In this document: positions 7,884 to 52,557 of the stretch, in pieces
How positions within the stretch are numbered: position 1 is the first letter of the stretch
How the letters are laid out: each line of letters starts with the position of its first letter
Assembly: GCA_964399295.1 (NCBI GenBank)
Contig: CAYNQD010000001.1
Coordinates: forward strand, 335,672 to 399,671
Direction of reading: 5' to 3'
DNA length: 64,000 nt
From: an uncultured Candidatus Saccharibacteria bacterium
GTDB lineage: Bacteria > Patescibacteriota > Minisyncoccia > Phycocordibacterales > UBA918
Program-made: the position numbers and the translations under genes
The notes under the pieces: generated by a model
Told to the model about the DNA's origin: nothing
Databases searched by the model: none
What the model saw: only the letters and a program-made list of their open reading frames with translations

Positions 7884-7912
7884 TTGACTTTTCCCTATTT
7901 TCATGATAAAAT
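7884..7912 (+). promoter_or_regulatory. sigma70-type promoter TTGACT-17nt-TAAAAT for the SPFH-like gene
   Basis: Consensus -35 TTGACT, exact 17-nt spacer, -10 TAAAAT. About 50 nt upstream of RBS AAGGAG and the ATG at 7962. Confidence 0.6.
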
Positions 7913-7961
7913 GAGGGTTGGTAGTTTTTTGACAATTTCCAACTTTTTCAAGGAGAAAAAA

Positions 7962-9179
7962 ATGGTAGATTTTCTTTTAATTTGGTATGTATACATACCA
8001 ATTGGTATCTTTGTACCACTATTTCTAATGGGGGTACCCATAGCACCGATGCTAAAAAACAAACCCTCCATAGAAGTTAATGGAAGGGTGGAAAAAAGTG
8101 ATTTCGGTTTTTTTACAGAGCTTCCCCCTGGAATCTGTAAAATAAAAGAGCGGGGAGGGGATTTTTTAATTCCACTTATGAATTATACCGGGCATACATA
8201 TGCCGGTATGAAAAGTGGGGCCAAGATCCCCATCCAAGACCCCAAAAGGTATTGGGTGGTCGTAGAGTCAGGAGATGATCCTGACTTTGATCCGCTTAAA
8301 TTTCCAGATCCCAGCAGATGGGATTTTGTTTTTGGCAGTTATAGGTATCCATGGTGGCTTTGGAAGATAATTATCTTCAAGGCCACCAAGCTGATCTTCA
8401 CTGGAATTTGGCCTTTCCAGAAGATCCGAGTAATGCCCATGGAATACTTAAAGGAATTGCCCGGACTGGCAATTTCAGCCACCGGGCAGAAAAAGAAACA
8501 ATACGAAAAGGTCACAAATTTTAGTGACCATTTTCGAATCGCTTCTTTCGATTTTCTGAATCTAATAGAATCAGCGGACACCAGCGATGGTGTCCCCTTG
8601 GAAATGCTGGTAGCATTTACAGGGAGAGTCTTTAACCCGTGGTTGGCCGCCTATAGGGCTGACCGTAGCTGGACGGTCAGGGTGAACAATTTCCTGCCGG
8701 GCGCAGTAAATGATTACACCCGCGGAAAGCCCCTGGATGAAGTCTACACAGGGGAAGACACCGGTGTTACAGAGACAGTAGAATCTCTGGGTAAAAGAAA
8801 CCGTTTTACCCAGGGGGAAGAGCCCATCTTCTGGGAGTTTGGAATAGAAATAATAAGGGCTCTGGTGCCAAACAGGTCGATAATCGACCATGAGGTACAA
8901 AGGAAAGTCAGTGAGAGGGCGGTCGCTTTGGCAGATAAAAGAGCCACTATAATAAGGGCCGAAGGTACTGCCAAGGCTATAGAACTCGAATCTCGGGCTA
9001 TAACAGAGGGCGGAGAGGAAGGCAGGTTAGCTGCCAAATACCGCCGGGATAAGGAGGTAGTAAACAACCTCCCCAACGGAGCCTCTGTCATCGTAACCCT
9101 AGGGGACGGTGAATCATCGACCGATCCCCTTAAAAAAACCAACGACTTGCTAAAAGCGTCGTTGATCAAAAAAGAGTAG
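7962..9179 (+). CDS. membrane-anchored SPFH/band-7 (stomatin/HflKC-like) domain protein
   Basis: N-terminal TM helix. SPFH-like core (SDGVPLEMLVAFTGRV; GIEIIRALVPNRSIIDHEVQRKV) and Ala/Glu-rich coiled-coil tail (IIRAEGTAKAIELESRAITEGGEEGRLAAKY). Start set at the ATG with RBS AAGGAG (residue 27 of the listed ORF, which begins at a TTG). Confidence 0.55.
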   Translation: MVDFLLIWYVYIPIGIFVPLFLMGVPIAPMLKNKPSIEVNGRVEKSDFGFFTELPPGICKIKERGGDFLIPLMNYTGHTYAGMKSGAKIPIQDPKRYWVVVESGDDPDFDPLKFPDPSRWDFVFGSYRYPWWLWKIIIFKATKLIFTGIWPFQKIRVMPMEYLKELPGLAISATGQKKKQYEKVTNFSDHFRIASFDFLNLIESADTSDGVPLEMLVAFTGRVFNPWLAAYRADRSWTVRVNNFLPGAVNDYTRGKPLDEVYTGEDTGVTETVESLGKRNRFTQGEEPIFWEFGIEIIRALVPNRSIIDHEVQRKVSERAVALADKRATIIRAEGTAKAIELESRAITEGGEEGRLAAKYRRDKEVVNNLPNGASVIVTLGDGESSTDPLKKTNDLLKASLIKKE

Positions 9180-9228: not shown

Positions 9229-9257
9229 TTGACTTTTTTAGTTTTTTAATGTATAAT
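9229..9257 (+). promoter_or_regulatory. sigma70-type promoter TTGACT-17nt-TATAAT for the downstream membrane-protein gene
   Basis: Consensus -35 and -10 with 17-nt spacer, directly after the terminator. RBS AAAGGAG precedes the ATG at 9294. Confidence 0.65.
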
Positions 9258-9293
9258 CTAAGAGGAAGTTTTTTAACAAAAAGGAGAAATATT

Positions 9294-10400
9294 ATGGAGC
9301 TGCTCATAACAATATCAACCACGGTAGGCATAATCGTGGTTATAGGAGTATTCTTGGCCATAGCCTACAAAGGCATGGCTCACGGGGGCGTAACTTTCAA
9401 CATAAGGGATCACAAGTGGCTAGCACTTGCACTGGTGATCCCCGTAACCACCTTCTTCCTCTGGAAATGGTGGTCAAAAAAAGAGACCGCCTCCGCAAAA
9501 GAGTCGGCAGGACTGGAGACCGCCATCTCCACCCTCTCCTCGTATACCGAGGACACCACTGGGATAATCACCCTAGTTGTAGTGGTGGCACTGGGGGTGT
9601 GGTTTTTTTCCCTGCTCCTCGTCAAAAAAGACAAGGTGGCAGAAAAAAACACCAACGATTCCCTGACAAGGAACCTGTCTGGGTACATAGTCTTTCTTGG
9701 GATTACCACTCTTGTGGTGATGTACGCCAAAGAACAGTACTGGGACAAGGACGCTATCCCCTTGTCGGGGATGACTCCTTACACAGGGGAGAACACCCCC
9801 CTAGCTTTGTTTATCGGATACACCTCCGCCGTGTTATGGATTGTTTTTATAACAATCGGCGGATGGTTATCCGACAAGGACAAAGACGCGCCCAACCAGA
9901 AATTGGCGGCTCAAGCGAAGAAGTTTGGCAATTTCTTCGGCTGGATCGCCTTCCTTTCCATTATTTTCATAGTAGGTTCATTCCTACTGAAGATAATGGA
10001 AGAGGCTCCTCCTGGGTGGGGCGAATCTGTCTCCAAGCCGGAGAAAGTCAATGTCCGACTTGAAAGAATAGGGCACGGACAGTCGGTTGCCCACGAAGCA
10101 AGCACGTTGACTGTTTTCACAGTCAGCCTGCCGACACCGCACAAGGTGGGCTGGGCATCGGCTGTCTGTGCCGAGATCATCAGCCCCAAGTGGTTGGTGG
10201 ATCAAATTGATGTGATTCAGCATCATTTTGAATTCACCACTCCAGGTGAGCGGGGTTTTGTTCACCAGATGAGACTCACTAAGGAGGTGAGATTTCATCT
10301 AACAGAAAAAGAATTAAGTGCGATAAGAGTGAAATTCCACCTAATCGCAACCCAAGGCTACCCCAAAGATGCGGTATGCCGAAAAACAAAATTCTTTTAA
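9294..10400 (+). CDS. hypothetical polytopic membrane protein (~6 TM) with C-terminal soluble domain
   Basis: 369 aa from the ATG with RBS. Multiple hydrophobic helices then a non-membrane C-terminal ~120 aa. Locally elevated GC. Alternative-frame ORFs here are Arg-rich artefacts. Confidence 0.55.
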   Translation: MELLITISTTVGIIVVIGVFLAIAYKGMAHGGVTFNIRDHKWLALALVIPVTTFFLWKWWSKKETASAKESAGLETAISTLSSYTEDTTGIITLVVVVALGVWFFSLLLVKKDKVAEKNTNDSLTRNLSGYIVFLGITTLVVMYAKEQYWDKDAIPLSGMTPYTGENTPLALFIGYTSAVLWIVFITIGGWLSDKDKDAPNQKLAAQAKKFGNFFGWIAFLSIIFIVGSFLLKIMEEAPPGWGESVSKPEKVNVRLERIGHGQSVAHEASTLTVFTVSLPTPHKVGWASAVCAEIISPKWLVDQIDVIQHHFEFTTPGERGFVHQMRLTKEVRFHLTEKELSAIRVKFHLIATQGYPKDAVCRKTKFF

Positions 10401-10461: not shown

Positions 10462-10515
10462 AAAACCATCAAGACGACAGCTTACCTGTCCTCTCTTGAT
10501 GGTTTTTTATTTTTT
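10462..10515 (+). terminator. rho-independent terminator
   Basis: aaaaccatcaaga...tcttgatggtttt stem followed by ttttttatttttt. Confidence 0.75.
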
Positions 10516-10549: not shown

Positions 10550-10885
10550 TTAATTAACCTTAAAAACATCATCGCAACCGGTAGTGCCTGCCGGATCATT
10601 GGCGCAATCCAACTGCTTGCTCATGCCAAAAGTATTGACGGCGATAGAAAGGAGCGCGTAGGCGGAAATCATGACCACCAGGCCAATAATGCCGTAAGTA
10701 ATATGCTTCTTGCCGTCAGCTCTGGCGGTTTCATTGCTACTATTCATCAGGTATTCAGCTAAACCATAAAGAAACACCAACAAAGCCACCCCTGAAAGCA
10801 GAGCAATTGTAGGAAAAAGGATAATTTCGTTTAATTTGGCAACAAAACTAGCAGCTTCAGCGGCAGCTTTTTCTTGTGGTGACAT
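10550..10885 (-). CDS. small 2-TM pilin-like protein (TrbC/VirB2-like T4SS-pilin family, paralog 1)
   Basis: 111 aa. Two hydrophobic helices separated by a charged loop (SSNETARADGKKH). C-terminal Cys pair. Same architecture as the three downstream paralogs. Confidence 0.55.
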   Translation of the reverse strand: MSPQEKAAAEAASFVAKLNEIILFPTIALLSGVALLVFLYGLAEYLMNSSNETARADGKKHITYGIIGLVVMISAYALLSIAVNTFGMSKQLDCANDPAGTTGCDDVFKVN

Positions 10886-10935
10886 ATTCGCTTAGGATTA
10901 TACCACGAACTGAAGCCACATTTCAGGGAAGTAAT

Positions 10936-10978
10936 ACACAACAAAAAAAGACCCCCAGGGGGTCTTTTTTGTTGTGTA
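10936..10978. terminator. bidirectional terminator / near-perfect 20-bp palindrome
   Basis: acacaacaaaaaaagaccccc-a-gggggtcttttttgttgtgt. T/A runs on both sides. Confidence 0.75.
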
Positions 10979-10999
10979 TTTACACATCAATAAAACAGA

Positions 11000-11398
11000 T
11001 TATGGTGTCACCTTAACCACAGGAATCAAAGTATTGATATTCTCATTGGTCGCACCGGTACTTGTTGCCAACAGGTTCACAACTCCCCAGAAAATAAGAA
11101 TCAATACGAATCCTAAAGTAGCGTAAATCATCAGGCTCTTGCCTTTTTCCTTAGACTCGTCATTAGCACCACCCGCAATGAAGTACTGGAACATTCCCCA
11201 GACAAACACCAAGAAACCAATACCAATAATAAATGGAATAAGAACATCATTAGTAAAAGCTAATATATTACTAAGCAAGTCCTGAAAACGACCTCCTCCA
11301 CCACCTGGACTAGCCAACCCTCCCGTTTGAGCCGAAGCTTGAGACATAGGAAGTAAAAAAATCGCTAGTGAGCTTACAAAAAATGTGAAACGTTGCAT
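11000..11398 (-). CDS. pilin-like protein with cleavable signal peptide + 2 TM (TrbC/VirB2-like, paralog 2)
   Basis: 132 aa. Signal peptide ending ...SQASA-Q, Gly-rich linker, then TM-loop(GGANDESKEKGKS)-TM with the WGVV motif shared with paralog 3. Confidence 0.6.
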   Translation of the reverse strand: MQRFTFFVSSLAIFLLPMSQASAQTGGLASPGGGGGRFQDLLSNILAFTNDVLIPFIIGIGFLVFVWGMFQYFIAGGANDESKEKGKSLMIYATLGFVLILIFWGVVNLLATSTGATNENINTLIPVVKVTP

Positions 11399-11521
11399 AA
11401 AAAAATTAATTTAATTAAATACTAATAAAGTACTGTCAAGTAGTATAGCTTATATTTAAGAACTTTTCCAGTGGTCAAAGAGATTCTGTGTATAACCTAC
11501 CAATACCCAAAATACCCCACG

Positions 11522-11800
11522 CTATATACCAAACAAAGATTGCCTGAGCATGGCCACCACTCCCCAGAGAATGGTAGCGAGAACAAATACTATCACCGCC
11601 ACCATAGCTGCCTGCTTCCCCTCTCCCCTCTTCTTTTCGTCACCGGCATTTATGACCCAAGCGTCGATTATTTTCCACATCAGGTACAGAAAAAGCAGAC
11701 CCAGAAGAGTCGGTATCAAAACGTTGATGAGGCTCAAAAATAAATCTACTAATTGTTTGAAAGTGGTTGGTGGTGTCATATTTTTACGTAAAGGAACCAA
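11522..11800 (-). CDS. small 2-TM pilin-like protein (paralog 3)
   Basis: 92 aa. TM-loop(NAGDEKKRGEGKQAA)-TM ending ILWGVVAML. An alternative ATG at 11779 would remove the 17-nt overlap with paralog 4. Confidence 0.55.
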   Translation of the reverse strand: MVPLRKNMTPPTTFKQLVDLFLSLINVLIPTLLGLLFLYLMWKIIDAWVINAGDEKKRGEGKQAAMVAVIVFVLATILWGVVAMLRQSLFGI

Positions 11801-12068
11801 CTAGATTTTTAATGATTTCCGCTATCACAACCGCTCCGATAATCAACACTCCGCCAATAATGGCATACATCAAGGCGCGTGAGGCTTGTTGTACCTGCTC
11901 GGCATTGCCCCTGGCTGTCACATAGAGAAAGCCGGCATATATGATAAAGAAAATAACAATGGGCATGGCGATAACAATCACTATATTTAAAATTGCGACC
12001 AGAAGCTCTTCAATGGAGTTCACATTTATAGGATTGTTTAACTTGAAGGAAGTTTTTATTGGTGACAT
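11784..12068 (-). CDS. small 2-TM pilin-like protein (paralog 4; best fit to CPR T4SS-pilin pattern)
   Basis: 94 aa. IIYAGFLYVTARGNAEQVQQASRALMYAIIGGVLIIGAVV fits the pattern I recall for the CPR TrbC/VirB2-like pilin family (Pfam T4SS_pilin, cited from memory). Confidence 0.6.
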   Translation of the reverse strand: MSPIKTSFKLNNPINVNSIEELLVAILNIVIVIAMPIVIFFIIYAGFLYVTARGNAEQVQQASRALMYAIIGGVLIIGAVVIAEIIKNLVGSFT

Positions 12069-12086
12069 AAAACATTGATAACTAAG

Positions 12087-13388
12087 CTAATAAATTTGTT
12101 GCAAACGGGCAACGGTGTCTCCGGCTACGGACGTGATGTTGCGACGGTTTGAGCTGATGTCTTCTATGGACTGAGTAAATACACCTCTGACACGATCTGG
12201 ATCGGGGTTTAGCCAAGCCCTAGTGTTGAACGCGGAGCTGTATATTACTCTTCCATAGACATCATTGCTGCCCATTTGCAAAGACGTACGATACACCGGT
12301 GCCAGATTATTGGCATCAGCTATTCTTTTAGCGAATTGCTGTTCGCCTAGGGTGTTCATCACGGTATAAGCACCGGACTTATTTTTGGCCGCTTTCAACA
12401 CAAACAAACCGTAAAAATTGCCGTAAGTGCGCTTGTTGACTACATTTTCTCCTTGTGGAACCTCAGCAATATCAAAGCTTAAATTTGGATTTTTGGCTTC
12501 CAGCTCCCTGCCTTCACTGCCAAATCCAAAATAAAGAGCCAGGTCTTCACGTAAAAACATGTCCCGATCCAAAGATAAGGAACGATTCCAGCCATAGAGA
12601 GAATTGTTTACATTGCTGAAGCTGGTAAAGAAAGTAAGAGCGGTGGTTAGTGGAGCCGCCGTGCTACCAGCTGAAGTGTTTAAATTTACGCGATACTGCG
12701 AACCGCTTTCACCAACTAAATTGCTACCGGATTGAATCAACAACATTGATAAAATGGGGAAGGAGTTTTTTATATTTGTATATTCACCCATGGCAACGGC
12801 TGATTTTTGGATAGTGCGATTGAAGTCTCTTTTGGTGAGAGCTGGTGCCACGTCATTTACTATTTCCTCCCAGGTGGCTGGTGGTGTGAGAAAACCATTA
12901 GTAGATAAAGTGTCTCGATTCCAGTACATTACCAAAGGATCTACGGCTATAGGAAAAGCATAAACTCCGTCGTTTAGAGCAAAAATACCAGCTCCGTCAA
13001 TGTACCGATTTCTAAAATCCCTAACCGGAAAAGATTCATAAGGTATAGACTGGAGCCGACTGCGATGTTTTACCATTCTTTCGTGTGACATTAGCAAAAT
13101 ATCCGGCGGGTTTTGGTCAGCCAAAGCATCAACGACCATGCGATCAAAACTTTCCGGTGCAATGTAACGATAAGAGACGTTTCTATAGGAGTCATAGGTT
13201 TCGGACAACTCCCCTAATATTTGACTAAAGACGGTCGCTGGTAAGGTTCCCCAAATGGTCACTGGTCCGCTTACAATAACAGCACTGTCATCGGGCTTTG
13301 GCTCATAAGTACGCATCAAAAACAAAGCTACTAGCGCCAAAACACCAAAAGTCATTACTAAACCTAATTCAAAAGGACGAAGTTTCAT
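12087..13388 (-). CDS. membrane-anchored extracellular solute-binding-protein-like protein (ABC SBP family 1-like)
   Basis: 433 aa. N-terminal TM anchor. IWGTLP...QNPPDILLMSHERM pattern reminiscent of sugar-type SBPs. 4-nt overlap with the downstream methyltransferase gene. Confidence 0.45.
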   Translation of the reverse strand: MKLRPFELGLVMTFGVLALVALFLMRTYEPKPDDSAVIVSGPVTIWGTLPATVFSQILGELSETYDSYRNVSYRYIAPESFDRMVVDALADQNPPDILLMSHERMVKHRSRLQSIPYESFPVRDFRNRYIDGAGIFALNDGVYAFPIAVDPLVMYWNRDTLSTNGFLTPPATWEEIVNDVAPALTKRDFNRTIQKSAVAMGEYTNIKNSFPILSMLLIQSGSNLVGESGSQYRVNLNTSAGSTAAPLTTALTFFTSFSNVNNSLYGWNRSLSLDRDMFLREDLALYFGFGSEGRELEAKNPNLSFDIAEVPQGENVVNKRTYGNFYGLFVLKAAKNKSGAYTVMNTLGEQQFAKRIADANNLAPVYRTSLQMGSNDVYGRVIYSSAFNTRAWLNPDPDRVRGVFTQSIEDISSNRRNITSVAGDTVARLQQIY

Positions 13389-13930
13389 AATTTTCTAACG
13401 GTAAATCCGTAGTGATGGTCTCCAGCCGGAAACTCACGCTCTAAAATAAATTCTAAAGATTCAAACAAACTAATAGCCTTGTCTTTGGTAACCACATCCT
13501 TTGGCTGTGGCCCAATACCGCCAAAGGATTCAGACCAATCAATAACATGCAGCAAGCCGCCAGTTTTTAAAACTCTTCTGATTTCCTTAATCGCTTTCTC
13601 TTTGTTTTCAAATTGAAAAAAAGTATTAACCAAAATACCGGCATCCAAAGCTCCATTAGCTAGCTTTATGCCGTTTTCTTCTTCCAAGTCGCACCAGAGC
13701 GGATGTACGTTTGGGAGATTGCTTAGGCGTATAAACTCGCTGAGTTTTTCCACTAGTTGCTTCTGGATTTCGCAAGCGTAGACTTTTCCCTCCTGTACAC
13801 TCTCTGATAGTATCTTGAGAAAAAAGCCGCTGCCCGCGCCAAAGTCTGCCACCACGTCTCCGGGTTTTAGGTTGAAGTGAGTAGAAACCACTTCAGGCAC
13901 CACAAAGCGTCCTGATAAAACGAAATTCAT
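13385..13930 (-). CDS. class I SAM-dependent methyltransferase
   Basis: Motif I VADFGAGSGFF, post-I acidic residue, motif II region. 181 aa. Confidence 0.75.
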   Translation of the reverse strand: MNFVLSGRFVVPEVVSTHFNLKPGDVVADFGAGSGFFLKILSESVQEGKVYACEIQKQLVEKLSEFIRLSNLPNVHPLWCDLEEENGIKLANGALDAGILVNTFFQFENKEKAIKEIRRVLKTGGLLHVIDWSESFGGIGPQPKDVVTKDKAISLFESLEFILEREFPAGDHHYGFTVRKL

Positions 13931-20218: not shown

Positions 20219-20449
20219 GAAAAGCTCCTTTTTACTAAAAATGTGAAAGAACTGAAAAAACAAAAAAACCTCCGCGAGAGGCCTGTGTTTCTTTATAATG
20301 TTGTTGATTATATCTTTAGCACACAAAACCCTCTCGCTTTACGAGGTTATAAAACCAAAAAAAGAAAAAAGTTGTTGCCTTGTGTGACATACAAATATAG
20401 TAATATAATATGAAATTCTGTCAACAAAAATGTGTTATTATTACCTGTT

Positions 20450-21202
20450 ATGAATAATCCTATCCTTGAAGTAAAAAACTTAGTCAAAACCTACGGCTCG
20501 GGAAATAAGGCTAAATTAGCTGTTGATAATATTTCTATTACTATTCCTCAAGGCAGTTTCTTTGGTCTTTTGGGACCAAACGGCGCCGGAAAAAGTACCT
20601 TGATACACTGTATTACCGGTATTGCCCAGCCGACAGCCGGACAAATATTGGTTGACGGAACCGACGTGGTAAAAGACTACAAATTGGCAAGAACAAAAGT
20701 CGGCCTTTCCCCACAGGAGTTTAACGTCGATATTTTTTCCACCACCGAAGAATTGATGGATTTTATGGGCGGATACTACGGTATTAGAAAAGCGGAGCGA
20801 CAAAACCGTATCAATGAGCTGATATCGCGTTTTGATCTGGAAGAACACCGCCAGGTAAAATTCCAAAAACTCTCAGGCGGACTCAAAAGACGAGCTATGC
20901 TAGGCAGAGCTTTGGTACACATGCCAAAACTCCTAATCTTGGATGAACCAACCGCCGGAGTAGATATCAAGCAACGCCATGACCTCTGGGAATATTTAAA
21001 AGAAATCAACGCCAACGGCACAACAATAATCCTCACCTCACATTATCTGGAGGAAGTGCAGTATCTTTGCAACGAAATCGCGATTATCAATAACGGCAAG
21101 ATTATCGCCGAAGGTTCAAAAGAAGAATTTACCAAAAACGGAAAAAGCCTAGAGCAGGCTTACTTAGAAATTACCAAAGAAGCAGACAGTGAACAAAAAT
21201 AA
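20450..21202 (+). CDS. ABC transporter ATP-binding protein (ABC-2 type exporter)
   Basis: Walker A GPNGAGKST, signature LSGGLKRR, Walker B LLILDEPTAGVD. Start at the ATG of MNNPIL; the listed ORF begins at an upstream GTG. Confidence 0.85.
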   Translation: MNNPILEVKNLVKTYGSGNKAKLAVDNISITIPQGSFFGLLGPNGAGKSTLIHCITGIAQPTAGQILVDGTDVVKDYKLARTKVGLSPQEFNVDIFSTTEELMDFMGGYYGIRKAERQNRINELISRFDLEEHRQVKFQKLSGGLKRRAMLGRALVHMPKLLILDEPTAGVDIKQRHDLWEYLKEINANGTTIILTSHYLEEVQYLCNEIAIINNGKIIAEGSKEEFTKNGKSLEQAYLEITKEADSEQK

Positions 21203-21206
21203 TTTT

Positions 21207-22016
21207 ATGGAAAACAATCACCCTCAAATCCCAACCGAACTCGACTCCAATCACACCAATTGGATTGGCCTATTTACCATGTTTAGGCGAGAGGTGAAGC
21301 GTACTTTTCGCGTAGCGATTCAGACTTTGGTCGCGCCGGTAATTTCCGCCGCTTTATATATATTTATATTCGGCATGGTAATTGGTTCGCAAATTACCGA
21401 AGTAGCCGGAGTGCCTTATATTGCTTTTGTTTTTCCTGGGATTTTGATGTTGTCGGTTATCAATTCCTCTTTTGCTTCCGCTTCATCGGCTTTGTATTTT
21501 ATGCGTTTTACGCGCGGGATTGAGGAAATATTGATAACACCTTTTTCGTATCTGGAAATGCTGATTGGTTTTGTTGGCAGCGCCATTACTCGCGCTCTGA
21601 TGGTGGCTTTTTTGATTCTGGGCGTAGGCGCGATATTTGGCGCGGTAAGCTTGGTGAGTCCTATTTTATTTGTATTATATGTGTCTGCCATTGCGGCAAT
21701 TTTTGCCATGCTCGGCATAATCGTGGCTCTTTGGGCGGAAAATTTTGAACAACTGCAAGTTTTAAATACTTTTGTTATCACTCCCCTCACCTATTTGGGC
21801 GGAATTTTTTATTCAATAACTTTCTTGCCAGACACCGCCCGCACTCTGACCGAGCTAAATCCATTTTTCTATTTTACCGATGCCATTCGCAGTAGCATGA
21901 TCGGCATTAGCGAAGCCAACACTTTTGTTGGCGCGATTCTCATAGCTGGCTTGGTTGTTTTTCTGGGAATTTTGGTTACTTGGTTGTTTAAAAAAGGTTG
22001 GAAGATTAGGTCTTAA
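21207..22016 (+). CDS. ABC-2 family transporter permease
   Basis: Six hydrophobic helices typical of ABC-2 permeases. Start set at the ATG (MENNHPQ) 5 nt after the ATPase stop; the listed ORF starts at an overlapping GTG. Confidence 0.75.
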   Translation: MENNHPQIPTELDSNHTNWIGLFTMFRREVKRTFRVAIQTLVAPVISAALYIFIFGMVIGSQITEVAGVPYIAFVFPGILMLSVINSSFASASSALYFMRFTRGIEEILITPFSYLEMLIGFVGSAITRALMVAFLILGVGAIFGAVSLVSPILFVLYVSAIAAIFAMLGIIVALWAENFEQLQVLNTFVITPLTYLGGIFYSITFLPDTARTLTELNPFFYFTDAIRSSMIGISEANTFVGAILIAGLVVFLGILVTWLFKKGWKIRS

Positions 22017-29822: not shown

Positions 29823-30066
29823 TCATTTTTGTCTTAATCTGGGATAAAAATTTCTCTTTAGTCCAGCCGTCAATGGCAGGGCTGTTTTCCGCCTCGTCTA
29901 TCAACTGTCGTAGTTGTTGAAGTTTTGATTTTGCTTCCTGTTCTTGTAGCAGACGCAAACCAGCTCTCACAACTTCACTCTGGTTTTGGTATCGACCAGC
30001 CTCAACTTGACTCTCAATAAAATTACTCAATTCTTCGCTGGGTTGAAAAGTAAGGGTGCGTGACAT
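29812..30066 (-). CDS. parD: type II toxin-antitoxin ParD-family antitoxin (ribbon-helix-helix)
   Basis: MSRTLTFQPSEELSNFIESQVEAGRYQNQSEVVRAGLRLLQE is a classic ParD/CopG RHH N-terminus. Start at residue 21 of the listed ORF, giving 84 aa. Confidence 0.7.
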   Translation of the reverse strand: MSRTLTFQPSEELSNFIESQVEAGRYQNQSEVVRAGLRLLQEQEAKSKLQQLRQLIDEAENSPAIDGWTKEKFLSQIKTKMNGK

Positions 30067-30225
30067 GGTGCTTGTTCCTTTGTAAGACATATTCTTACAA
30101 TTTAGCATAGCTAGTAATCTTGTCAAGAATTAAATGCCTTTTTGTCAGAAGTGCTATCATATAATTCTTGGTCGTGAATTAGCTTAAATAATTTCTCGGT
30201 ATTTTTTCGTGGTTTGGGGTGGGTG

Positions 30226-30257
30226 GTTCGAGATGTGGAGCGGTGTGGGGCACAAAC
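30226..30257 (+). repeat. left copy of ~32-bp imperfect direct repeat flanking the AT-rich fru-like island
   Basis: gttcgagatgtggagcggtgtggggcacaaac versus gttcgagatgtggctcggtatggttcacaaaac at 32510 (27/33 identical, same orientation). Confidence 0.6.
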
Positions 30258-30370
30258 TTGCCACATATGTAATTATTCACACTTGGATGACATCTATATA
30301 TTCAAGCTACGGTTTTTTATTTTAAGATTATTAGATCATTGTATTTTTTATTCTAGACACTCGACTAATA

Positions 30371-31234
30371 TCAAGCTTTTTTTCTGTACAATAAATTGGT
30401 TTTTTGATGTATGGATGCATATGCCATTGCAGTTTTGATAGCATTACTAAAATCAATATCAGTACTTAAACCAACTAAATAACCACCAAGAAATATATCA
30501 CCAGAACCTATTTCACTTTCATTCTTTGCAATATGTTGGTTTGGCAATATAAATTCAGAATATTCTCCGTTTTTATCAACTACTAAAACCTTCTTTGATG
30601 CTTGAGTTATCACAAGACGGCACTTTATATCATTTTGTAAATCTATAAGGTTTTTCTTGGTAATTTTTGTTATAGGTACGTTCAGAATACTAGAAAGCTC
30701 TTTTATATTTATTTTTAAAGTATGTGGCAAAATCTTTTTTAAGGCTTCTACGTTAAAAGTTGTCGTATCCAAAATTTTTTTACACCGAATATCTGAAACT
30801 AATTTTGTGAGTAAACTATAATCTGCATCCCCCTTCAGGAATGGAGTCGACCCAGCTATCACAAGATAATCTTCTTCTCCAATAATTCCTTTAATTTTAT
30901 TGAAAAACTGCTCAATATTAGAGTATGAGGCTACTGATTTACTACGAATATGCGAAACCAACTGAGAATTTTTATAGATAGTAAAGTTTTGACGTATAGA
31001 TCCTTCATGAAAAAAGAACTCATGCTCTTCCCTTGAGACACTTTCAAAAGGTATTTTTCCAGAAAAAACTAACGAACAGAAATTTATATTATTAATAATA
31101 AGAGGCTTAGCCGAATTTATAGCCTTACTTGCTAAAAAATACTCAACTTTTTGTGCAATACAATCTCTACTACCAAACTCGTCAACTTCTATCTTTGTGT
31201 CTATGGCAGGATTTAATGTTATTAAATAAATCAC
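30371..31234 (-). CDS. PfkB-family carbohydrate kinase (1-phosphofructokinase/tagatose-6-phosphate kinase-like)
   Basis: N-terminus MIYLITLNPAIDTKIEVDEF is typical of FruK/LacC. PfkB signature GSGDIFLGGYLVG near the C-terminus. Strongly AT-rich. Confidence 0.7.
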   Translation of the reverse strand: MIYLITLNPAIDTKIEVDEFGSRDCIAQKVEYFLASKAINSAKPLIINNINFCSLVFSGKIPFESVSREEHEFFFHEGSIRQNFTIYKNSQLVSHIRSKSVASYSNIEQFFNKIKGIIGEEDYLVIAGSTPFLKGDADYSLLTKLVSDIRCKKILDTTTFNVEALKKILPHTLKINIKELSSILNVPITKITKKNLIDLQNDIKCRLVITQASKKVLVVDKNGEYSEFILPNQHIAKNESEIGSGDIFLGGYLVGLSTDIDFSNAIKTAMAYASIHQKTNLLYRKKA

Positions 31235-32277
31235 GCTAATATTATATCAGTTTGATGATTATCAAAGTATTTTTGGTAATCTTTAAGTAGCCTGCCACCA
31301 TTAGTTTCAGCTGATATAATCTTTATATTCTCATTAAATTCTGCAAAAATTTGCGATTGTCTTAATCCAAACTTATCTTCAGTGCAGACTATATACTTTG
31401 ACTTGCAATATCTAAGTAATGAGGCTTTCGCACGCTTTTCTCCAGAATCTGCTGTTGTAAACCCAACATTCTTTAAAATTCCATTGGTTCCCACGAAGCC
31501 TATATCCGCGCCGCCTAATGACGGTAAAACTTTGTCAAAATCATGAAAAATATCTTCTTCCACACTTTCGTTGTCGTCCACAATTGCCATTGTGTTAAGC
31601 CTTACTCTGCCACCTATAATAAATAATCTAAACATAGGATCATGATCTTCGAGTCCTAATTCGCTACATGCCGTCACAATTGCATCGGCGACCAAGAAAG
31701 AGCTGGTTACCACAGTAATCTTTCTCAACGAATGGTCTTTAAAGCCTTTTGCGATTAGCTTAGCTATTTCTAGGGTAGTAGTACCAGCATCTAATGCCAC
31801 CACATCACCTGACTTAATAAACGAATAAGCTTTTTCTGCGATCTTTCTTTTTTCGTGCCGTCCTATATTTTTCTTCCACGATATATGTTCCTCATGTATA
31901 AATAAATTATCGTGCTCTCGCACCAATCCTGGAAGCTTATCTTGGACAATTAGTGCAGATAGTGCTTTTTGAAAAGCTTCGAAATCTAGTTCTGTCTCTT
32001 TTCTATCCACTAGTCTTTTATGAAGATCAAATACTGTTATTGGATCGTCTTTTTGATATGGTCTAACTACGTTTAATATTGTTGCTGCTTGTGTTTTTAA
32101 AAGTCTTTCTGTTTCCTCGAGTGCGGTCTCCGGCTCAATTGTATTTTCTTCAATGACAAATGATTTTCTGAGCTTTTGAATAAATTTAAACTTTTTATTT
32201 ATATACAACCCAATCAATGCGCAAACGGCTGTCACTATCGTGGTAATTATTGCTGCCGTAGCTGTATCAATGAACAT
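31231..32277 (-). CDS. DeoR-family-like regulator (sugar-phosphate sensor domain) with N-terminal transmembrane helix
   Basis: DeoR C-terminal effector-domain pattern (SGDVVALDAGTTTLEIAKLIA...ITVVTSSFLVA). N-terminal 25 aa hydrophobic. 4-nt overlap with the kinase gene. Confidence 0.55.
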   Translation of the reverse strand: MFIDTATAAIITTIVTAVCALIGLYINKKFKFIQKLRKSFVIEENTIEPETALEETERLLKTQAATILNVVRPYQKDDPITVFDLHKRLVDRKETELDFEAFQKALSALIVQDKLPGLVREHDNLFIHEEHISWKKNIGRHEKRKIAEKAYSFIKSGDVVALDAGTTTLEIAKLIAKGFKDHSLRKITVVTSSFLVADAIVTACSELGLEDHDPMFRLFIIGGRVRLNTMAIVDDNESVEEDIFHDFDKVLPSLGGADIGFVGTNGILKNVGFTTADSGEKRAKASLLRYCKSKYIVCTEDKFGLRQSQIFAEFNENIKIISAETNGGRLLKDYQKYFDNHQTDIILA

Positions 32278-32509
32278 TTCAGATACCCATAATTTTCTGA
32301 ATATAATTAAGCAAGTATAACCACTGTCAGATATCCCGTGAACAAGAAAGTTAAATCAAATTAAACAATAGTTTTTTTATAAAGAAAATTTGTATAGGAA
32401 ATGTAAATTTGATTAAGCAACTTTCTTATTTGAAGAACTATCTGGCTGTTCCTTACCATGAATCAATTTAAATATCTTCTCAGTCTCCACCCTTGACACG
32501 TTTTTAAAA

Positions 32510-37648: not shown

Positions 37649-38002
37649 GTGAATGTTAATATGTATAGAATATTTGGAGGTTTGTTTTTGTTGCTGCTGG
37701 TAATGCCGCTTTCCACGGAAGCTAGCGTTGCGGTGAGCAATTCAGTTTCGGTGTCGTCATCTGGTGACGGGGTTAGTACCATGCATGTAAAAACCATTAG
37801 CAATGGCGAAGTCGTTGAAAATACAAGCATATCTACCACCACTCCTTTTCATTACCATTCCAGCTACACGACTGAAGACGGATTAAAGACTTCACTTCAG
37901 ACTTCCGACATTGAAAAACTAGAAACAATCAAAAAATTACTAGCATTATTAAACGAACTTCAGACTTTGATGGCTCTGTATGAAAAAATCTATGCTAAAT
38001 AA
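37649..38002 (+). CDS. hypothetical small secreted protein (signal peptide)
   Basis: 117 aa. Hydrophobic N-terminus, Ser/Thr-rich middle, helical C-terminus. Overlaps the start of the next gene by 23 nt. Coding status uncertain. Confidence 0.35.
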   Translation: MNVNMYRIFGGLFLLLLVMPLSTEASVAVSNSVSVSSSGDGVSTMHVKTISNGEVVENTSISTTTPFHYHSSYTTEDGLKTSLQTSDIEKLETIKKLLALLNELQTLMALYEKIYAK

Positions 38003-40835
38003 AAATATCTTTTCTAATTTGTACTCAAGCTTGGTAGGCTTGGTTATTGTCGCGCTATTGGCGCCGGCTGTCTATCCCCTATCTGTCCTAGCCGAAACCA
38101 GCAACGAAGAAACCGTGCTTTCAGCAGAGATTGTCACTGGTGATGCCACAGCCGGCACGACAATAGAAAATGACATAAACACCAACATCATTGATACAAA
38201 AAATGACGGTGAAGAGTTGCCTGATTCCAGCTCTACGCTACCGACACCAGAAACAGCTACCACCACAATCTCGCAAAACCCAGAAAATGACGCTGCTAGC
38301 AGCACGTCAAAATTGCCGATGACCCCCAACGAGACAAATATCACCGCCACCAACACCGCTACCACCACCAACCTAGCCACCAGCACCGCCGAAACCGGAG
38401 GCAATACTACCGAAGCTGGTAATTTCCTAACTGAGACCGGCGACGCTGTTTCTTATATAGACGTGGTCAATGTCGTAAACACCAATATCATAAACTCATC
38501 CGGTCTGATTGATTTTATTCGCGGAGTGCTTGGCTACGATAATTTTGACATGCGTGATACTTTTTACGACATCTTCAAATCTTTCCAAACCGCGCAAAGT
38601 ACAAACTCATGTTTGGAAAATATCTGTGACTACAATTCTTTAATGGTGGATTTAGTCAACAGAGCCAATATTTATAACGATATTTCGGTTATCGCCAACA
38701 CCGGCGACAACTCCAGTTTTGACGGCAGCGGCATTATCAGGACTGGAGATGCCTACGCCAGCGCCAATATTGTCAACCTCGCCAACACCAATATTATTGA
38801 CTCCAACTATCTGCTATTAAACTTCAGCAATTTCTCCGACATGGCCGGCTCTTTGGTTTTGCCAAATAGCGATTTCTTCGCCTCATTATTTGGCCATACT
38901 GGCAACTCAATCGGAAGCGGAAATTTTAATTTTAGTAATAACGCCGCCGTTAGCAATGACATTGAAGTGCTGGCCGATACTGGAAATAACGCCATTGACG
39001 ACGGCAGCGGGACAATCACCACCGGCAATTCATTAGCCACCTCTCATACCGAAAACATTATCAACCAGAATTTTCTTGGCACCGATTCTTTTAGTTTGCT
39101 TATTAGAGTCCATGGTTCTTGGAGCGGAGAAATTTTTGGCTTACCGGAAGGCATGCTGTGGGAAAACACTATGGACGGTGTTAGGTTGTATTACGCTGGG
39201 GACAGTGGCGGCGCCTCAGCTAGCGGCAAGACTATGGCCAATATTGCAAATGACGCTACTATTGCAAATAATGTCCAAGTCTTCGCCCTAACCGGAAACA
39301 ATCAGATTTCGGGCAGTGACGACGCGAGCATAGAGACCGGCACCGCCTACGCCGACAGCACGGTATTAAATATGGCCAACACCAACATCATCGGCAGCAA
39401 CTGGGTCAATCTTATCTTTAATATTTATGGAAATTGGAGCGGCAATATTGCCTTTGGCCAACCCGACTTATGGCTGGGATTGGAAGCCGAGACAAAAGAC
39501 AACCTGCAACCAAACACTGAAGTGACTTATAAATACACCATCTTCAATCGCGGTGACACCACAGCTCGAAACGTGATTTTGGAAAATAAATATCCGGCAA
39601 AATCCATCAATTTTATCAATTCACCTGAAGATAATAGTCAAAGTGACGGACACAGCCTCTGGTCGATTGGAGATATTGGGACAGGAGAAACAAAAGAGCT
39701 TATTGTCAAAACCAAAATCGACGCCACTTTTGGAAAGGATAAGCGTCTGCCTTTGCCAATAACCGCCACCGTATACGGCGATCAGCCCGACGCCAACGAC
39801 GCTGACAACGAAGATTCTTTATTGCTCTACGTCGGCAAAAATCAGAAAACGACCTACACAAACAACAATGAGGAAAATAACAGAAACAACGCTTTCCCAG
39901 CCAAATTTTTCATCGAAAAAAGTGCCGACAAAACCTTTGCTAAGGGCGGCGACACCATAAACTACACCGTCAAACTAACCAGTAAAGGCGGACAGCTTTT
40001 TGACTCAGTTTTGTTTGATGTGTTGGAGGATGAAGAAGGTAATATTTTAAGCGAACAATCCTGGAATCTTGACACCATCGAAAACGGCGAAGATATCACT
40101 ATCTCCTACTCGATTATTCTTCCGGAAAATACCGCAACTGGCATTTATACCAATACCGCGCAACTGTTTGGCAATCACGGCTCCAGACAACCAAAATATA
40201 GAACCGTATACGAAAGTGCAGTCGCCAAACATCAGCTAGCGGTGGGCAATTTGGCAGCCTTCCCCAATTTGAACGCCAATATCTTGAGCTGTAGTCCTTA
40301 CCTAAAAACCTACCTAAAACAAGACAAAGATAATGACTTGAGTGAAGTCGTAAAATTGCAACAATTTCTCTATCATTACGTGACCGACGAAATCGAAATC
40401 AGCGGTGTTTTTGATGACGCTACCAGAATTGCCGTTGCTGAATTTCAACAGCAATACGCGGCGGATATTCTTACCCCTTGGGGAATGACACAAAGCTCCG
40501 GCTATGTGTACTACACAACACAAAAGAAAATAAACGAAATCATGTGCGATCACAAAGTTGAATTTCCATTAACCCCAGACCAAGAAAAAGAAATGGATTA
40601 TTTCAAACAAAATATACACAAAATCAACGTTGACGACATGTTGTTTTCCGGAGACATCAACGCCAACGACTTGGCTGCAGCCGATATTGAGAATGAATCA
40701 GCGACAATTATTGCTGACGATTATATCTCCTCCCCAACAATCAAGCTCTTGAAAGAGGTCTCCAAACCGCACTATAGTCGGTTTGATAATTGGCTTTTGC
40801 TGTTCAAAAATACTCACACTGCCTTTCGCTACTAG
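37980..40835 (+). CDS. large cell-surface repeat protein with C-terminal peptidoglycan-binding-like domain
   Basis: 951 aa. Signal/anchor. Motif TG(D/N)A.A.....N..NTNII recurs at least five times. CARDB/DUF11-like beta region (KYTIFNRGDTTARNVILENKY...TGETKELIVKTKIDA). PG_binding_1-like segment (LQQFLYHYVTD.EISGVFDDATRIAVAEFQQQY). Confidence 0.65.
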   Translation: MKKSMLNKNIFSNLYSSLVGLVIVALLAPAVYPLSVLAETSNEETVLSAEIVTGDATAGTTIENDINTNIIDTKNDGEELPDSSSTLPTPETATTTISQNPENDAASSTSKLPMTPNETNITATNTATTTNLATSTAETGGNTTEAGNFLTETGDAVSYIDVVNVVNTNIINSSGLIDFIRGVLGYDNFDMRDTFYDIFKSFQTAQSTNSCLENICDYNSLMVDLVNRANIYNDISVIANTGDNSSFDGSGIIRTGDAYASANIVNLANTNIIDSNYLLLNFSNFSDMAGSLVLPNSDFFASLFGHTGNSIGSGNFNFSNNAAVSNDIEVLADTGNNAIDDGSGTITTGNSLATSHTENIINQNFLGTDSFSLLIRVHGSWSGEIFGLPEGMLWENTMDGVRLYYAGDSGGASASGKTMANIANDATIANNVQVFALTGNNQISGSDDASIETGTAYADSTVLNMANTNIIGSNWVNLIFNIYGNWSGNIAFGQPDLWLGLEAETKDNLQPNTEVTYKYTIFNRGDTTARNVILENKYPAKSINFINSPEDNSQSDGHSLWSIGDIGTGETKELIVKTKIDATFGKDKRLPLPITATVYGDQPDANDADNEDSLLLYVGKNQKTTYTNNNEENNRNNAFPAKFFIEKSADKTFAKGGDTINYTVKLTSKGGQLFDSVLFDVLEDEEGNILSEQSWNLDTIENGEDITISYSIILPENTATGIYTNTAQLFGNHGSRQPKYRTVYESAVAKHQLAVGNLAAFPNLNANILSCSPYLKTYLKQDKDNDLSEVVKLQQFLYHYVTDEIEISGVFDDATRIAVAEFQQQYAADILTPWGMTQSSGYVYYTTQKKINEIMCDHKVEFPLTPDQEKEMDYFKQNIHKINVDDMLFSGDINANDLAAADIENESATIIADDYISSPTIKLLKEVSKPHYSRFDNWLLLFKNTHTAFRY

Positions 40836-50988: not shown

Positions 50989-52557
50989 ATGAGAATTTTA
51001 GTTTTAGCACCATATAGCAGGCCTTGGGATGAATCAGATGCGGAAGGGAGCGGTATGAACATTTTTATTCGTGAAAGCTGTGAAGCGCTGGTAGCAGCGG
51101 GACATACTGTAGATGTTTGTATAAGAAAGTCTCGACCAGGAGATCAAGAGGTGTTTAAAATTCGTAAAGGCTTAAATGTTCACAGTCTTAAAGCTGGTTT
51201 GGTTGGAAAATTATCTCGACATGAAGTTTATAATGCCTTGCAAAAATCTGGATTTTCTGATGATTTGGTTGACAGAGCTGATTTGGTAATCGCACATTAT
51301 TGGATATCAGCACCTTGGATAAAAGCAGTTTCTGGAAAGTATCACGGTCGGATTCTGTATTTTTCTCATTCTCATTTTCTAAATCCATATCGTGAACAAG
51401 TTGATTCTTTGCACCAAAAAGCTGAAATTGGCTTGCTTGGTCGAGTGACTTGGTGTGCTTATAGTTCGGAGGAGTTTGAGAGTCTTTCCGACATTTTGCC
51501 TGAAGGAAGGTTGGCTATGACTCATCCTGGGGTGGAGAATGTGGTTGGATTTGGTGATTTAGAACGAACCAACGAGGTTTTGTTTGTGGGTAGGAAAAAT
51601 CATGCCAAAGGTTATGATTTATTTTGTGCAGTCGCTAATAGATTTCCATATCTTTCATTTGTGGCAATTGGTAGAGATGAGGTAGGGGATGATATCAATA
51701 CGGAACATGTTATTTCAGAGGATTTTTTGGAATTATCTAAGTTACAAAGAAGAATATCCGCCGCACGATTGGTTGTCTGCCCATCTCGCTATGAGCATTT
51801 TGGCTTGATTCCACTACTGGCACTTTCAGTCGGTACACCTGTTGTAGCTACAAATCGAGGTGGTTTTAAGGATGTAATAATTTCAGAAAGTACTGGCGTA
51901 TTATGTGAAAGTAATGTTGAGTCAATAGCTAATGCAATTAACTTAGCCCTTGATAAGTTACCTATACCAGCTCAGGACACAAAAGCCAAAGAAATTTTAA
52001 ATAAATACTCTTGGAATAATTGGGTGCGGGAAATACAAGCAGTGGCTACACAGACTGACAATTTGCTTCAGACTAAATTTTTAGAGGTTAGTGTGACACC
52101 TCACAAAACCAACGGTGCTGTTGTTTGGTACGAAAAAGTGAAATTGCCAGGTTCCGTTCATGTGATTCCGGTAAATGAAGATGGCACGTATGAATTTATA
52201 GAGGAAGATAGATACGATGAAGGTGTCTCGGGTAAGCTTCGAGTTCTTTCAGGTATAATTGAGAAAGGAGAATCTCCCGATCAAGCCGCTATCAGAGAAT
52301 TAAAAGAAGAAATTGGCTGGGAGACTGAAAGATTAGTCTTGATTTGGCATTCCATGACAAAAGGTACTGTTGAAGACCAGCGGTATTATTTTCTTGCTGA
52401 AAATTCAAAAAAAGGCGCCTCTATACCAGATACAACTGAAAGGATTGTTGATACGCGCTCTATTGCTAAAGAGGAACTATTAAAATTAGTACAGCAAGGA
52501 GTTTTTGGGGAATCATTTACGGCAGTTGCTCTCTTGAAGTTGTGTGGTATTTTATAA
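50989..52557 (+). CDS. GT4-family glycosyltransferase fused to C-terminal NUDIX hydrolase domain
   Basis: GT4 N-terminal region. EX7E-type motif EHFGLIPLLALSVGTPVVATNRGGFKDVI. Nudix box GIIEKGESPDQAAIRELKEEIGW about 120 aa from the C-terminus. Confidence 0.7.
   Translation: MRILVLAPYSRPWDESDAEGSGMNIFIRESCEALVAAGHTVDVCIRKSRPGDQEVFKIRKGLNVHSLKAGLVGKLSRHEVYNALQKSGFSDDLVDRADLVIAHYWISAPWIKAVSGKYHGRILYFSHSHFLNPYREQVDSLHQKAEIGLLGRVTWCAYSSEEFESLSDILPEGRLAMTHPGVENVVGFGDLERTNEVLFVGRKNHAKGYDLFCAVANRFPYLSFVAIGRDEVGDDINTEHVISEDFLELSKLQRRISAARLVVCPSRYEHFGLIPLLALSVGTPVVATNRGGFKDVIISESTGVLCESNVESIANAINLALDKLPIPAQDTKAKEILNKYSWNNWVREIQAVATQTDNLLQTKFLEVSVTPHKTNGAVVWYEKVKLPGSVHVIPVNEDGTYEFIEEDRYDEGVSGKLRVLSGIIEKGESPDQAAIRELKEEIGWETERLVLIWHSMTKGTVEDQRYYFLAENSKKGASIPDTTERIVDTRSIAKEELLKLVQQGVFGESFTAVALLKLCGIL

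Follow-up and report, generated by a model that had tools for sequence, protein, structure and literature searches.

A fixed-order array of four T4SS-pilin-family genes behind a MalE-like binding protein gene in Paceibacteria

Which structure is formed by four small membrane proteins that are encoded side by side in a housekeeping segment of a Patescibacteria chromosome, and why are there four of them? The question is raised by a six-gene locus on the minus strand (10550–13930) of a 64-kb stretch of DNA (contig CAYNQD010000001.1), referred to below as the window, which is part of a Paceibacteria (Parcubacteria-type Patescibacteria) chromosome; the host organism is presumably a monoderm. In this locus, genes for a methyltransferase and for a solute-binding protein (SBP) are followed by four genes for small membrane proteins, designated slots D, C, B and A in the order of transcription. 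A first-pass annotation of the locus had described the four as paralogous pilin-type proteins of the kind used by type IV secretion systems (T4SS). The results presented here place them in the pilin family PF18895, and comparison of related genomes indicates that the subunits are old and that each has been conserved in its own right, with a fixed gene order behind the SBP gene in dozens of related species. The surrounding open reading frames (ORFs) of at least 150 amino acids (aa) constitute a housekeeping segment with infB, gyrA, ftsA, ftsZ, lepA, murJ, tsaD and the genes for aminoacyl-tRNA synthetases, RNase J and signal peptidase.

As stated in the first-pass annotation, four consecutive ORFs are present on the minus strand, namely slot A (10550–10885, 111 aa), slot B (11000–11398, 132 aa), slot C (11522–11779) and slot D (11784–12068, 94 aa). 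Hydropathy analysis bore out the proposed architecture for each of them, two hydrophobic helices with a short charged loop in between. The features ascribed to single members were found as well: slot B has a cleavable N-terminal signal peptide (MQRFTFFVSSLAIFLLPMSQASA/Q, ending ASA/Q), a Gly-rich linker and the two-helix core, the motif WGVV is common to B and C, and the C-terminal tail of A carries a Cys pair (LDCANDPAGTTGC). Slots A and C are devoid of a signal peptide. In the AlphaFold model of mature B, the helices (residues 14–53 and 57–90) form a helical hairpin, modelled with a predicted local distance difference test score (pLDDT) of 72.5. The lengths given earlier stand for A, B and D, but not for the third gene, to which 92 aa had been assigned. 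C most likely starts at ATG 11779, 4 nt past the stop codon of D, rather than at the D-overlapping TTG 11800, and comprises 85 aa; the same start is found in independent gene calls of public assemblies.

All four proteins matched PF18895 (T4SS_pilin, gathering cutoff 26.6 bits) in a Pfam profile search, in agreement with the proposed assignment to the T4SS-pilin family associated with the candidate phyla radiation (CPR). Three of the matches were above the cutoff (A, 31.9; B, 34.2; D, 38.2 bits) and that of C was below it (23.5 bits); C is put in the family by its orthologs and by a locally built family hidden Markov model (HMM; 97.6 bits). Since this ortholog-built HMM matches exactly four ORFs in the 64 kb, A, B, C and D, the PF18895 matches are not due to chance. 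Among 43 orthologous sequences, 42 matched PF18895. Judged by profiles, membership in the CPR-type pilin family is solid. The classical TrbC/VirB2 family (PF04956, cutoff 27.9 bits) was matched among the window proteins by D only (22.7 bits, E = 1e-4). It is nevertheless the second most frequent family among the 43 orthologs, with matches in 11 of them at E ≤ 0.01 (best E = 7e-6), while any unrelated family was matched by at most four. Furthermore, all four proteins matched NF045849, the model of a 'pilin-like conjugal transfer protein' from Mycoplasma integrative and conjugative elements (ICEs), at 29–35 bits and E values of about 1e-7 to 1e-9 (5e-7 listed for C), below the cutoff of 40 bits. 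Of the TrbC/VirB2 likeness claimed before, there remain remote and reproducible matches that score below the PF04956 cutoff; they suggest a weak relation to classical VirB2/TrbC and not membership. The designation as paralogs likewise needs qualification: the four proteins share their membership in PF18895, but paralogy is remote (about 15–33% identity within the array), pairwise detectable only for B–C (33%) and B–D (26%), and A is linked to the others via profiles only.

For comparison, approximately 90 related loci were gathered by exact look-ups and by one SBP-alignment scan of species-representative genomes; the identity of their SBP to the window protein extends from 99% down to 32%. Pilin genes were located by local HMM searches, and each slot label denotes the best match among the four paralogs of the window. 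Synteny was counted in those 63 species loci for which 2 kb or more of downstream sequence was available, and slot orthology, identity, signal peptides and terminators in the loci with the order DCBA (38 species, 152 pilins). Directly after the SBP homolog, at least three pilin-family genes were present in 61 of the 63 species loci and at least four in 60, the first of them starting a median of 5 nt past the SBP stop codon. The order is exactly D-C-B-A in 34 of the 63 (43 among all loci examined, including duplicate contigs), and most other orders result from duplication of slot B or D (DCBBA, DCBBBA, DDCB..., DDCBBBA). In dozens of species, the array lies in the core genome, with gyrA on one side and a rhodanese gene on the other.

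The slots are orthologous across these species. For all 152 pilins from DCBA loci, the nearest BLAST neighbour resides in the same positional slot, with median scores of 71–93 bits within slots versus 25–42 bits between slots. Mean pairwise identity within slots is 0.45 for D, 0.42 for C, 0.43 for B and 0.48 for A; the SBP of the same species reaches 0.45 and their methyltransferase 0.52. This even divergence, no faster than that of SBP and methyltransferase, points to purifying selection on each subunit. Each slot also has traits of its own. Signal peptides are predicted in 32 of 38 D and 30 of 38 B orthologs, but only in three of 38 each for C and A; D orthologs share an NPL motif that precedes helix 1, and the tail with the Cys pair is found in 14 of 38 A orthologs. 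Because orthology of the slots is deep and the divergence of each is slow and even, the four proteins are best regarded as non-redundant subunits, and on sequence grounds the slots argue against an array serving variation as well as against secreted peptides.

Some observations on array size and on the source genomes may be added. Expansion of the array occurred almost only via B (up to three copies) or D and never via C, and A stays last (L018, L020, L024, L032, L037, L039, L041 and other loci in our numbering). In the most distant loci (SBP identity below approximately 37%), arrays of five to eight genes are found and the slot labels blur. Many of the metagenome-assembled genomes (MAGs) concerned are titled 'uncultured Candidatus Saccharibacteria' (L012–L089) and have the Paceibacteria-type synteny of gyrA, methyltransferase, SBP and pilin genes; these submitter labels look generic and taxonomically uninformative.

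The genes of the locus are closely spaced. The methyltransferase gene (13385–13930, 181 aa), the first of the putative operon, overlaps the SBP gene (12087–13388, 433 aa) by 4 nt; the gap between SBP and D amounts to 18 nt and that between D and C to 4 nt. The methyltransferase gene adjoins the SBP homolog in 70 of 72 species loci and overlaps it in 32, and the D/C gap has a median of 6 nt over the 38 species. In two loci (L066 and L072) the upstream neighbourhood differs, yet methyltransferase-SBP-DCBA is intact. Because of the overlaps, the very short gaps and these two loci with broken upstream synteny, the genes are taken as one operon. The first-pass annotation had reported terminator-like palindromes between all paralogs and had considered individual transcription. 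This could not be confirmed, since a strong hairpin with a U-tract is present at two junctions only, between B and A (10944–10970, 12-bp stem) and after A (10462–10506, with a U-rich tract behind it). Folded as RNA, the B/A spacer reaches a z-score of −5.0, none of 200 shuffles being as stable, and the sequence after A one of −5.1; the C/B spacer is unstructured (z = −0.6). Over the 38 species, terminator-like sites were found between B and A in 19 (17 of them strong), after A in 21, between C and B in ten and between D and C, which are always tightly coupled, in none; in shuffled controls, such sites occurred in ten of 108 sequences and a strong one in a single case. A promoter-like site upstream of A (10897–10926; CTGAAA, 18 nt spacer, TG-TATAAT), recognized by consensus match, is the best in the region, with ten of 12 positions matching and an extended −10 element. 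The likely transcription units are methyltransferase-SBP-D-C, possibly with B, and A, which is probably a unit of its own.

The SBP-like protein and the methyltransferase were confirmed as the overlapping gene pair described before. The 433-aa protein has one N-terminal transmembrane (TM) segment and no Pfam match at E ≤ 1, besides a weak match to a MalE NCBIfam model (28 bits). Its AlphaFold model (pLDDT 91) is, according to Foldseek, most similar to cyclo/maltodextrin-, maltotriose- and beta-1,2-glucooligosaccharide-binding (sophoro-oligosaccharide) proteins (TM-score 0.6–0.72, E = 1e-20, approximately 15% identity). Homologs of about 434 aa were found in 684 cases in Paceibacteria/Nomurabacteria-type MAGs, and among the 120 listed, many (51–67% identical) carry PF01547 or PF13416. 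By its model, the protein is thus a membrane-anchored MalE-type (SBP_bac_1/8) binding protein with the two-lobed periplasmic-binding-protein type II fold. It shares this fold with MalE and the cluster-B oligosaccharide-binding proteins (PDB 2zyo, 2gha, 5ysf; TM-score approximately 0.7), but differs from SBPs of MalE-type importers by its low identity, by a TM anchor instead of a lipobox and by the pilin-family genes that always follow its gene. The importers have a permease/ATPase partner, whereas here neither the window nor the annotated related loci yielded a permease of the ATP-binding cassette (ABC) importer type (BPD_transp_1) or a MalFGK-type partner; the sole ABC genes in the window are an ABC-2 exporter pair (20432–22016). 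The 181-aa protein is, by its profile matches, a generic class I S-adenosylmethionine-dependent methyltransferase (Methyltransf_11, 47.5 bits; Methyltransf_25, 45.1 bits; Methyltransf_31, 41.3 bits; E = 1e-10 to 1e-12), and its NCBIfam matches are generic, no specific equivalog model having reached its cutoff.

Pilin genes of this family are known from other Patescibacteria. In Southlakia epibionticum, several pilins are predicted within an essential T4SS gene cluster (Wang et al. 2023, PMC10633639). In a survey of 3,026 Patescibacteria assemblies, VirB4 was found in approximately 2,400 (about 80%), and in the 1,948 assemblies with both VirB2-like (PF18895 and PF04956) and VirB4 genes, the two adjoin in 1,135 and are apart in 813, or about 40% (Quinonero-Coronel et al. 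2025, PMC12102498). The survey also lists 441 arrays of two to 11 pilin genes with a mean identity of 25%, the variability of which was suggested to help in adapting to different hosts. Tandem arrays of VirB2-like pilin genes, often far from virB4, are consequently an already catalogued kind of locus in Patescibacteria. We consider it rather probable that the locus described here encodes pilin subunits which are assembled by a VirB4-driven T4SS encoded elsewhere into one heteromeric pilus-like or channel-lining structure. In such a scheme, each of the four anciently diverged, non-redundant VirB2/TrbC-like proteins, encoded in the order D-C-B-A behind methyltransferase and MalE-like SBP in a core-genome operon, would form a helical hairpin in the cytoplasmic membrane. 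Insertion would proceed via a Sec signal peptide for B and, in most species, for D, and without one for C and A. The subunits would be used by a Patescibacteria-type T4SS derived from monoderm conjugation, with the genes for VirB4, VirB3 and VirB6 assumed elsewhere on the chromosome, and together they might form a single heteromeric structure at the cell surface. If one subunit is the major one and is dosed separately, slot A, often equipped with its own promoter and terminator, would be the best candidate.

The nearest known counterparts are the surveyed arrays and that of S. epibionticum ML1 (SEML1_0006 to SEML1_0019), with which the locus has in common PF18895, tandem divergent two-TM paralogs of about 25% identity and an ultrasmall monoderm bacterium as host; pilin genes away from virB4 are also frequent in the surveyed arrays. 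In Southlakia, however, six pilin genes lie inside the T4SS cluster and are essential according to transposon insertion sequencing, whereas no T4SS gene is found here within the 64 kb. The survey stresses variability, whereas here four slots are orthologous, in fixed order and predicted to be co-transcribed with a MalE-like SBP. With VirB2 of Agrobacterium and TrbC of plasmid RP4 (PF04956), the proteins share two hydrophobic helices, a short charged loop, a signal peptide on some members and the repeated sub-threshold profile matches mentioned above, but neither profile searches nor Foldseek connect them to solved pilins. In contrast to T4SS of Gram-negative bacteria, neither genes for cyclisation or TraF-type maturation nor VirB5 were seen at the locus. 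Mbov_0395 and MMCAP2_0565, encoded on Mycoplasma ICEs (NF045849), are also small two-TM proteins, from conjugation of the mating-pair formation (MPF)-FATA type in wall-less monoderms, and the matches span nearly the full 80-residue model; unlike the four-gene chromosomal operon, they are single-copy and belong to mobile elements.

Several observations weigh against assembly by a T4SS. A pilus has so far been observed in no Patescibacterium (2025 review, PMC12857230). In the window, Pfam scans of ORFs of at least 150 aa revealed no VirB4, VirD4, VirB6, VirB11 or type IV pilus ATPase, and in the approximately 90 related loci the large ORFs with a Walker A motif included neither a T4SS ATPase or channel gene nor type IV pilus machinery; in no locus examined are the pilin genes clustered with VirB3, VirB4 or VirB6. 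The lack of such machinery nearby, reported in the first-pass annotation, therefore extends over the whole window and the related loci; the notion that it is unusual has to be abandoned in view of the 40% of assemblies with distant virB4. An 801-aa protein in L072, examined as a candidate T4SS ATPase, was rejected, being UvrB. A search of the family profile against PDB sequences returned no solved VirB2, TraA or CedA1 pilin and only TM5–TM6 hairpins of G protein-coupled receptors (E of about 0.01), Foldseek found no match below E = 1 for the model of B, and a hairpin of two TM helices and a loop is a generic shape. Slot D of the window carries no signal peptide, in contrast to most of its orthologs. 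It also lacks the Gly/Thr/Pro-rich linker of most orthologs, and a TAG that occurs in frame 21 nt before the ATG rules out a longer D ORF; from the sequence, the leader of D appears to have been deleted in the lineage of the window. Finally, the neighbourhood of 12–15 kb is syntenic throughout, with gyrA upstream in 51 of 53 loci and the pth-S1-LactB3-gyrA block conserved too. Because gyrA and other housekeeping neighbours are conserved equally, adjacency by itself does not show a role of SBP and methyltransferase together with the pilins, and conserved adjacency was rejected as proof of such a function.

The constant proximity to the SBP gene is the starting point for a reading in which the four proteins have nothing to do with a T4SS and belong, as membrane subunits, to a complex for SBP-dependent uptake or sensing, the MalE-like protein passing a host-derived oligosaccharide to a channel of two-TM hairpins that would resemble DctQ or TctB, the small subunits of the tripartite ATP-independent periplasmic (TRAP) and tripartite tricarboxylate (TTT) transporters. 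The array begins within a few nt of the SBP homolog in 61 of 63 species. The fold of the SBP is that of sugar-binding proteins, the window contains no ABC permease for it, no T4SS gene occurs in any locus, and the hairpins have no detectable likeness to solved pilins. A DctQ profile was even matched weakly by four of the 43 members (best E = 3e-4), a level that corresponds to the noise of TM-rich queries. Such a complex would, however, require accounting for a large permease subunit (DctM- or TctA-like), which is not present nearby, and for a family that adjoins virB4 in the 1,135 surveyed assemblies and lies inside the essential T4SS cluster of Southlakia; the consistent secondary matches are to the TrbC/VirB2 and ICE pilin-like models, and gyrA is linked as tightly as the SBP gene. 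With matches in four members and no large permease, a TRAP DctQ-like identity was rejected as the principal explanation, and we regard the uptake or sensing complex as unlikely.

Still less probable are two further explanations. Interchangeable major pilins for host-range or antigenic variation have been proposed for the VirB2 paralogs of Bartonella and Anaplasma, the T4SS of which also comprise several divergent VirB2-family genes in tandem, and variation has been suggested for the Patescibacteria arrays. The low identity of the paralogs in the array is in line with the published mean (PMC12102498), and duplicated B and D slots in some species (DCBBA, DCBBBA, DDCBBBA) would fit such a role. 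Yet in arrays serving variation, genes should turn over lineage by lineage and evolve fast, whereas here the order is fixed, every nearest neighbour falls in its own slot and the slots, conserved orthologs under apparent purifying selection, diverge no faster than SBP and methyltransferase and keep their traits (signal peptide in D and B and not in C and A, NPL in D, Cys-pair tail in A), so that a set of variant pilins is very unlikely. The first-pass annotation had alternatively envisaged a diversified set of secreted membrane-active peptides, which would be bacteriocin-, holin- or toxin-like and directed against the host cell. Small size, hydrophobicity, one signal peptide and one tail capable of disulfide formation are compatible with this idea. 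It is contradicted by the slow divergence of fixed-slot orthologs, by the core-genome position between gyrA and the rhodanese gene in dozens of species under purifying selection, by family matches to conjugative pilin-like proteins and by the lack of immunity, processing-exporter and lysis genes nearby, and is extremely improbable.

Assembly by a T4SS encoded elsewhere remains the favoured explanation, and it could be extended. Methyltransferase, SBP, D, C, B and A might constitute one dedicated surface apparatus, with a heteromeric T4SS pilus or conduit built from four VirB2-like subunits that must all differ; the membrane-anchored MalE-like SBP would work together with it, either recognizing host glycans or serving as an adaptor, or acting as the receptor of a pilus-coupled route of nutrient uptake; the methyltransferase might modify a component of the apparatus. 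Family membership, operon anatomy, slot orthology and conservation are shown by the data, whereas T4SS assembly, heteromeric use of the four subunits and any role of SBP and methyltransferase are inferred; the dedicated apparatus as a whole is quite unlikely. If true, no characterised system would resemble this SBP-coupled, multi-pilin variant of a T4SS.

Further genes of the window may be mentioned. A 383-aa polytopic membrane protein is encoded on the plus strand (9249–10400), convergent on the pilin array. It gave no VirB6/TrbL, Pfam or NCBIfam match, and a word-seeded search returned only the protein itself. With five weak relatives among 1.84 billion representatives in an exhaustive HMMER search, it is a near-orphan. 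In other species, the polytopic protein encoded in this position cannot be aligned with it; this points to a hotspot or to a surface or membrane partner that evolves fast. Upstream of it (7884–9179, plus strand), a single-pass membrane protein is encoded, the C-terminal part of which weakly matches SPFH/Band 7 (22.7 bits, just under the cutoff); its gene stands beside the polytopic gene in many relatives, and both have very fast-evolving positional counterparts in most species. A 951-aa protein (37980–40835, plus strand) with a DUF11 repeat and PG_binding_1 is possibly a large wall-associated surface protein or adhesin. One ORF of 522 aa (50989–52557, plus strand) combines a family 4 glycosyltransferase with a NUDIX hydrolase domain. 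A second orphan solute-binding protein (SBP_bac_5, peptide/oligopeptide type) is encoded beside RNase J (57641–59377, plus strand), in a window without importer permease genes. The GC content of the region 30000–32300, which covers genes for a PfkB-family kinase and a protein with a DeoR C-terminal sensor domain, is 0.338 compared to about 0.43 elsewhere, and the pair may represent horizontally acquired sugar-utilisation genes. On the complete Nomurabacteria chromosome CP060229.1 (L041; 32,794–48,089 of 994,774 bp), the methyltransferase-SBP-pilin locus is located approximately 40 kb from coordinate 1. In Paceibacteria, virB4 is usually found near dnaA (PMC12102498); if the numbering of CP060229.1 starts at dnaA, the array is origin-proximal and near the reported position of the virB4 cluster.

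A tandem array of this kind is expected in Patescibacteria, and its novelty is modest. The conserved four-slot, SBP-linked operon organisation is new and previously undescribed: no SBP-pilin operon of this clade was found in the literature searched, the main text of PMC12102498 contains no SBP terms and a single, unrelated mention of a methyltransferase, and its supplements give no accession numbers of the related loci. This organisation is worth testing. In the one species tested so far, epibiotic growth depends on the Patescibacteria T4SS, and the four distinct subunits that a large Paceibacteria clade keeps in fixed order give concrete hypotheses for the few cultivable or genetically tractable systems, namely that they form a heteromeric structure and are not variant major pilins, that slot A may be separately dosed and that the SBP may be a partner. 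The subunits evolve as slowly as their housekeeping neighbours, and arrays called 'highly variable' can hide deep orthology.

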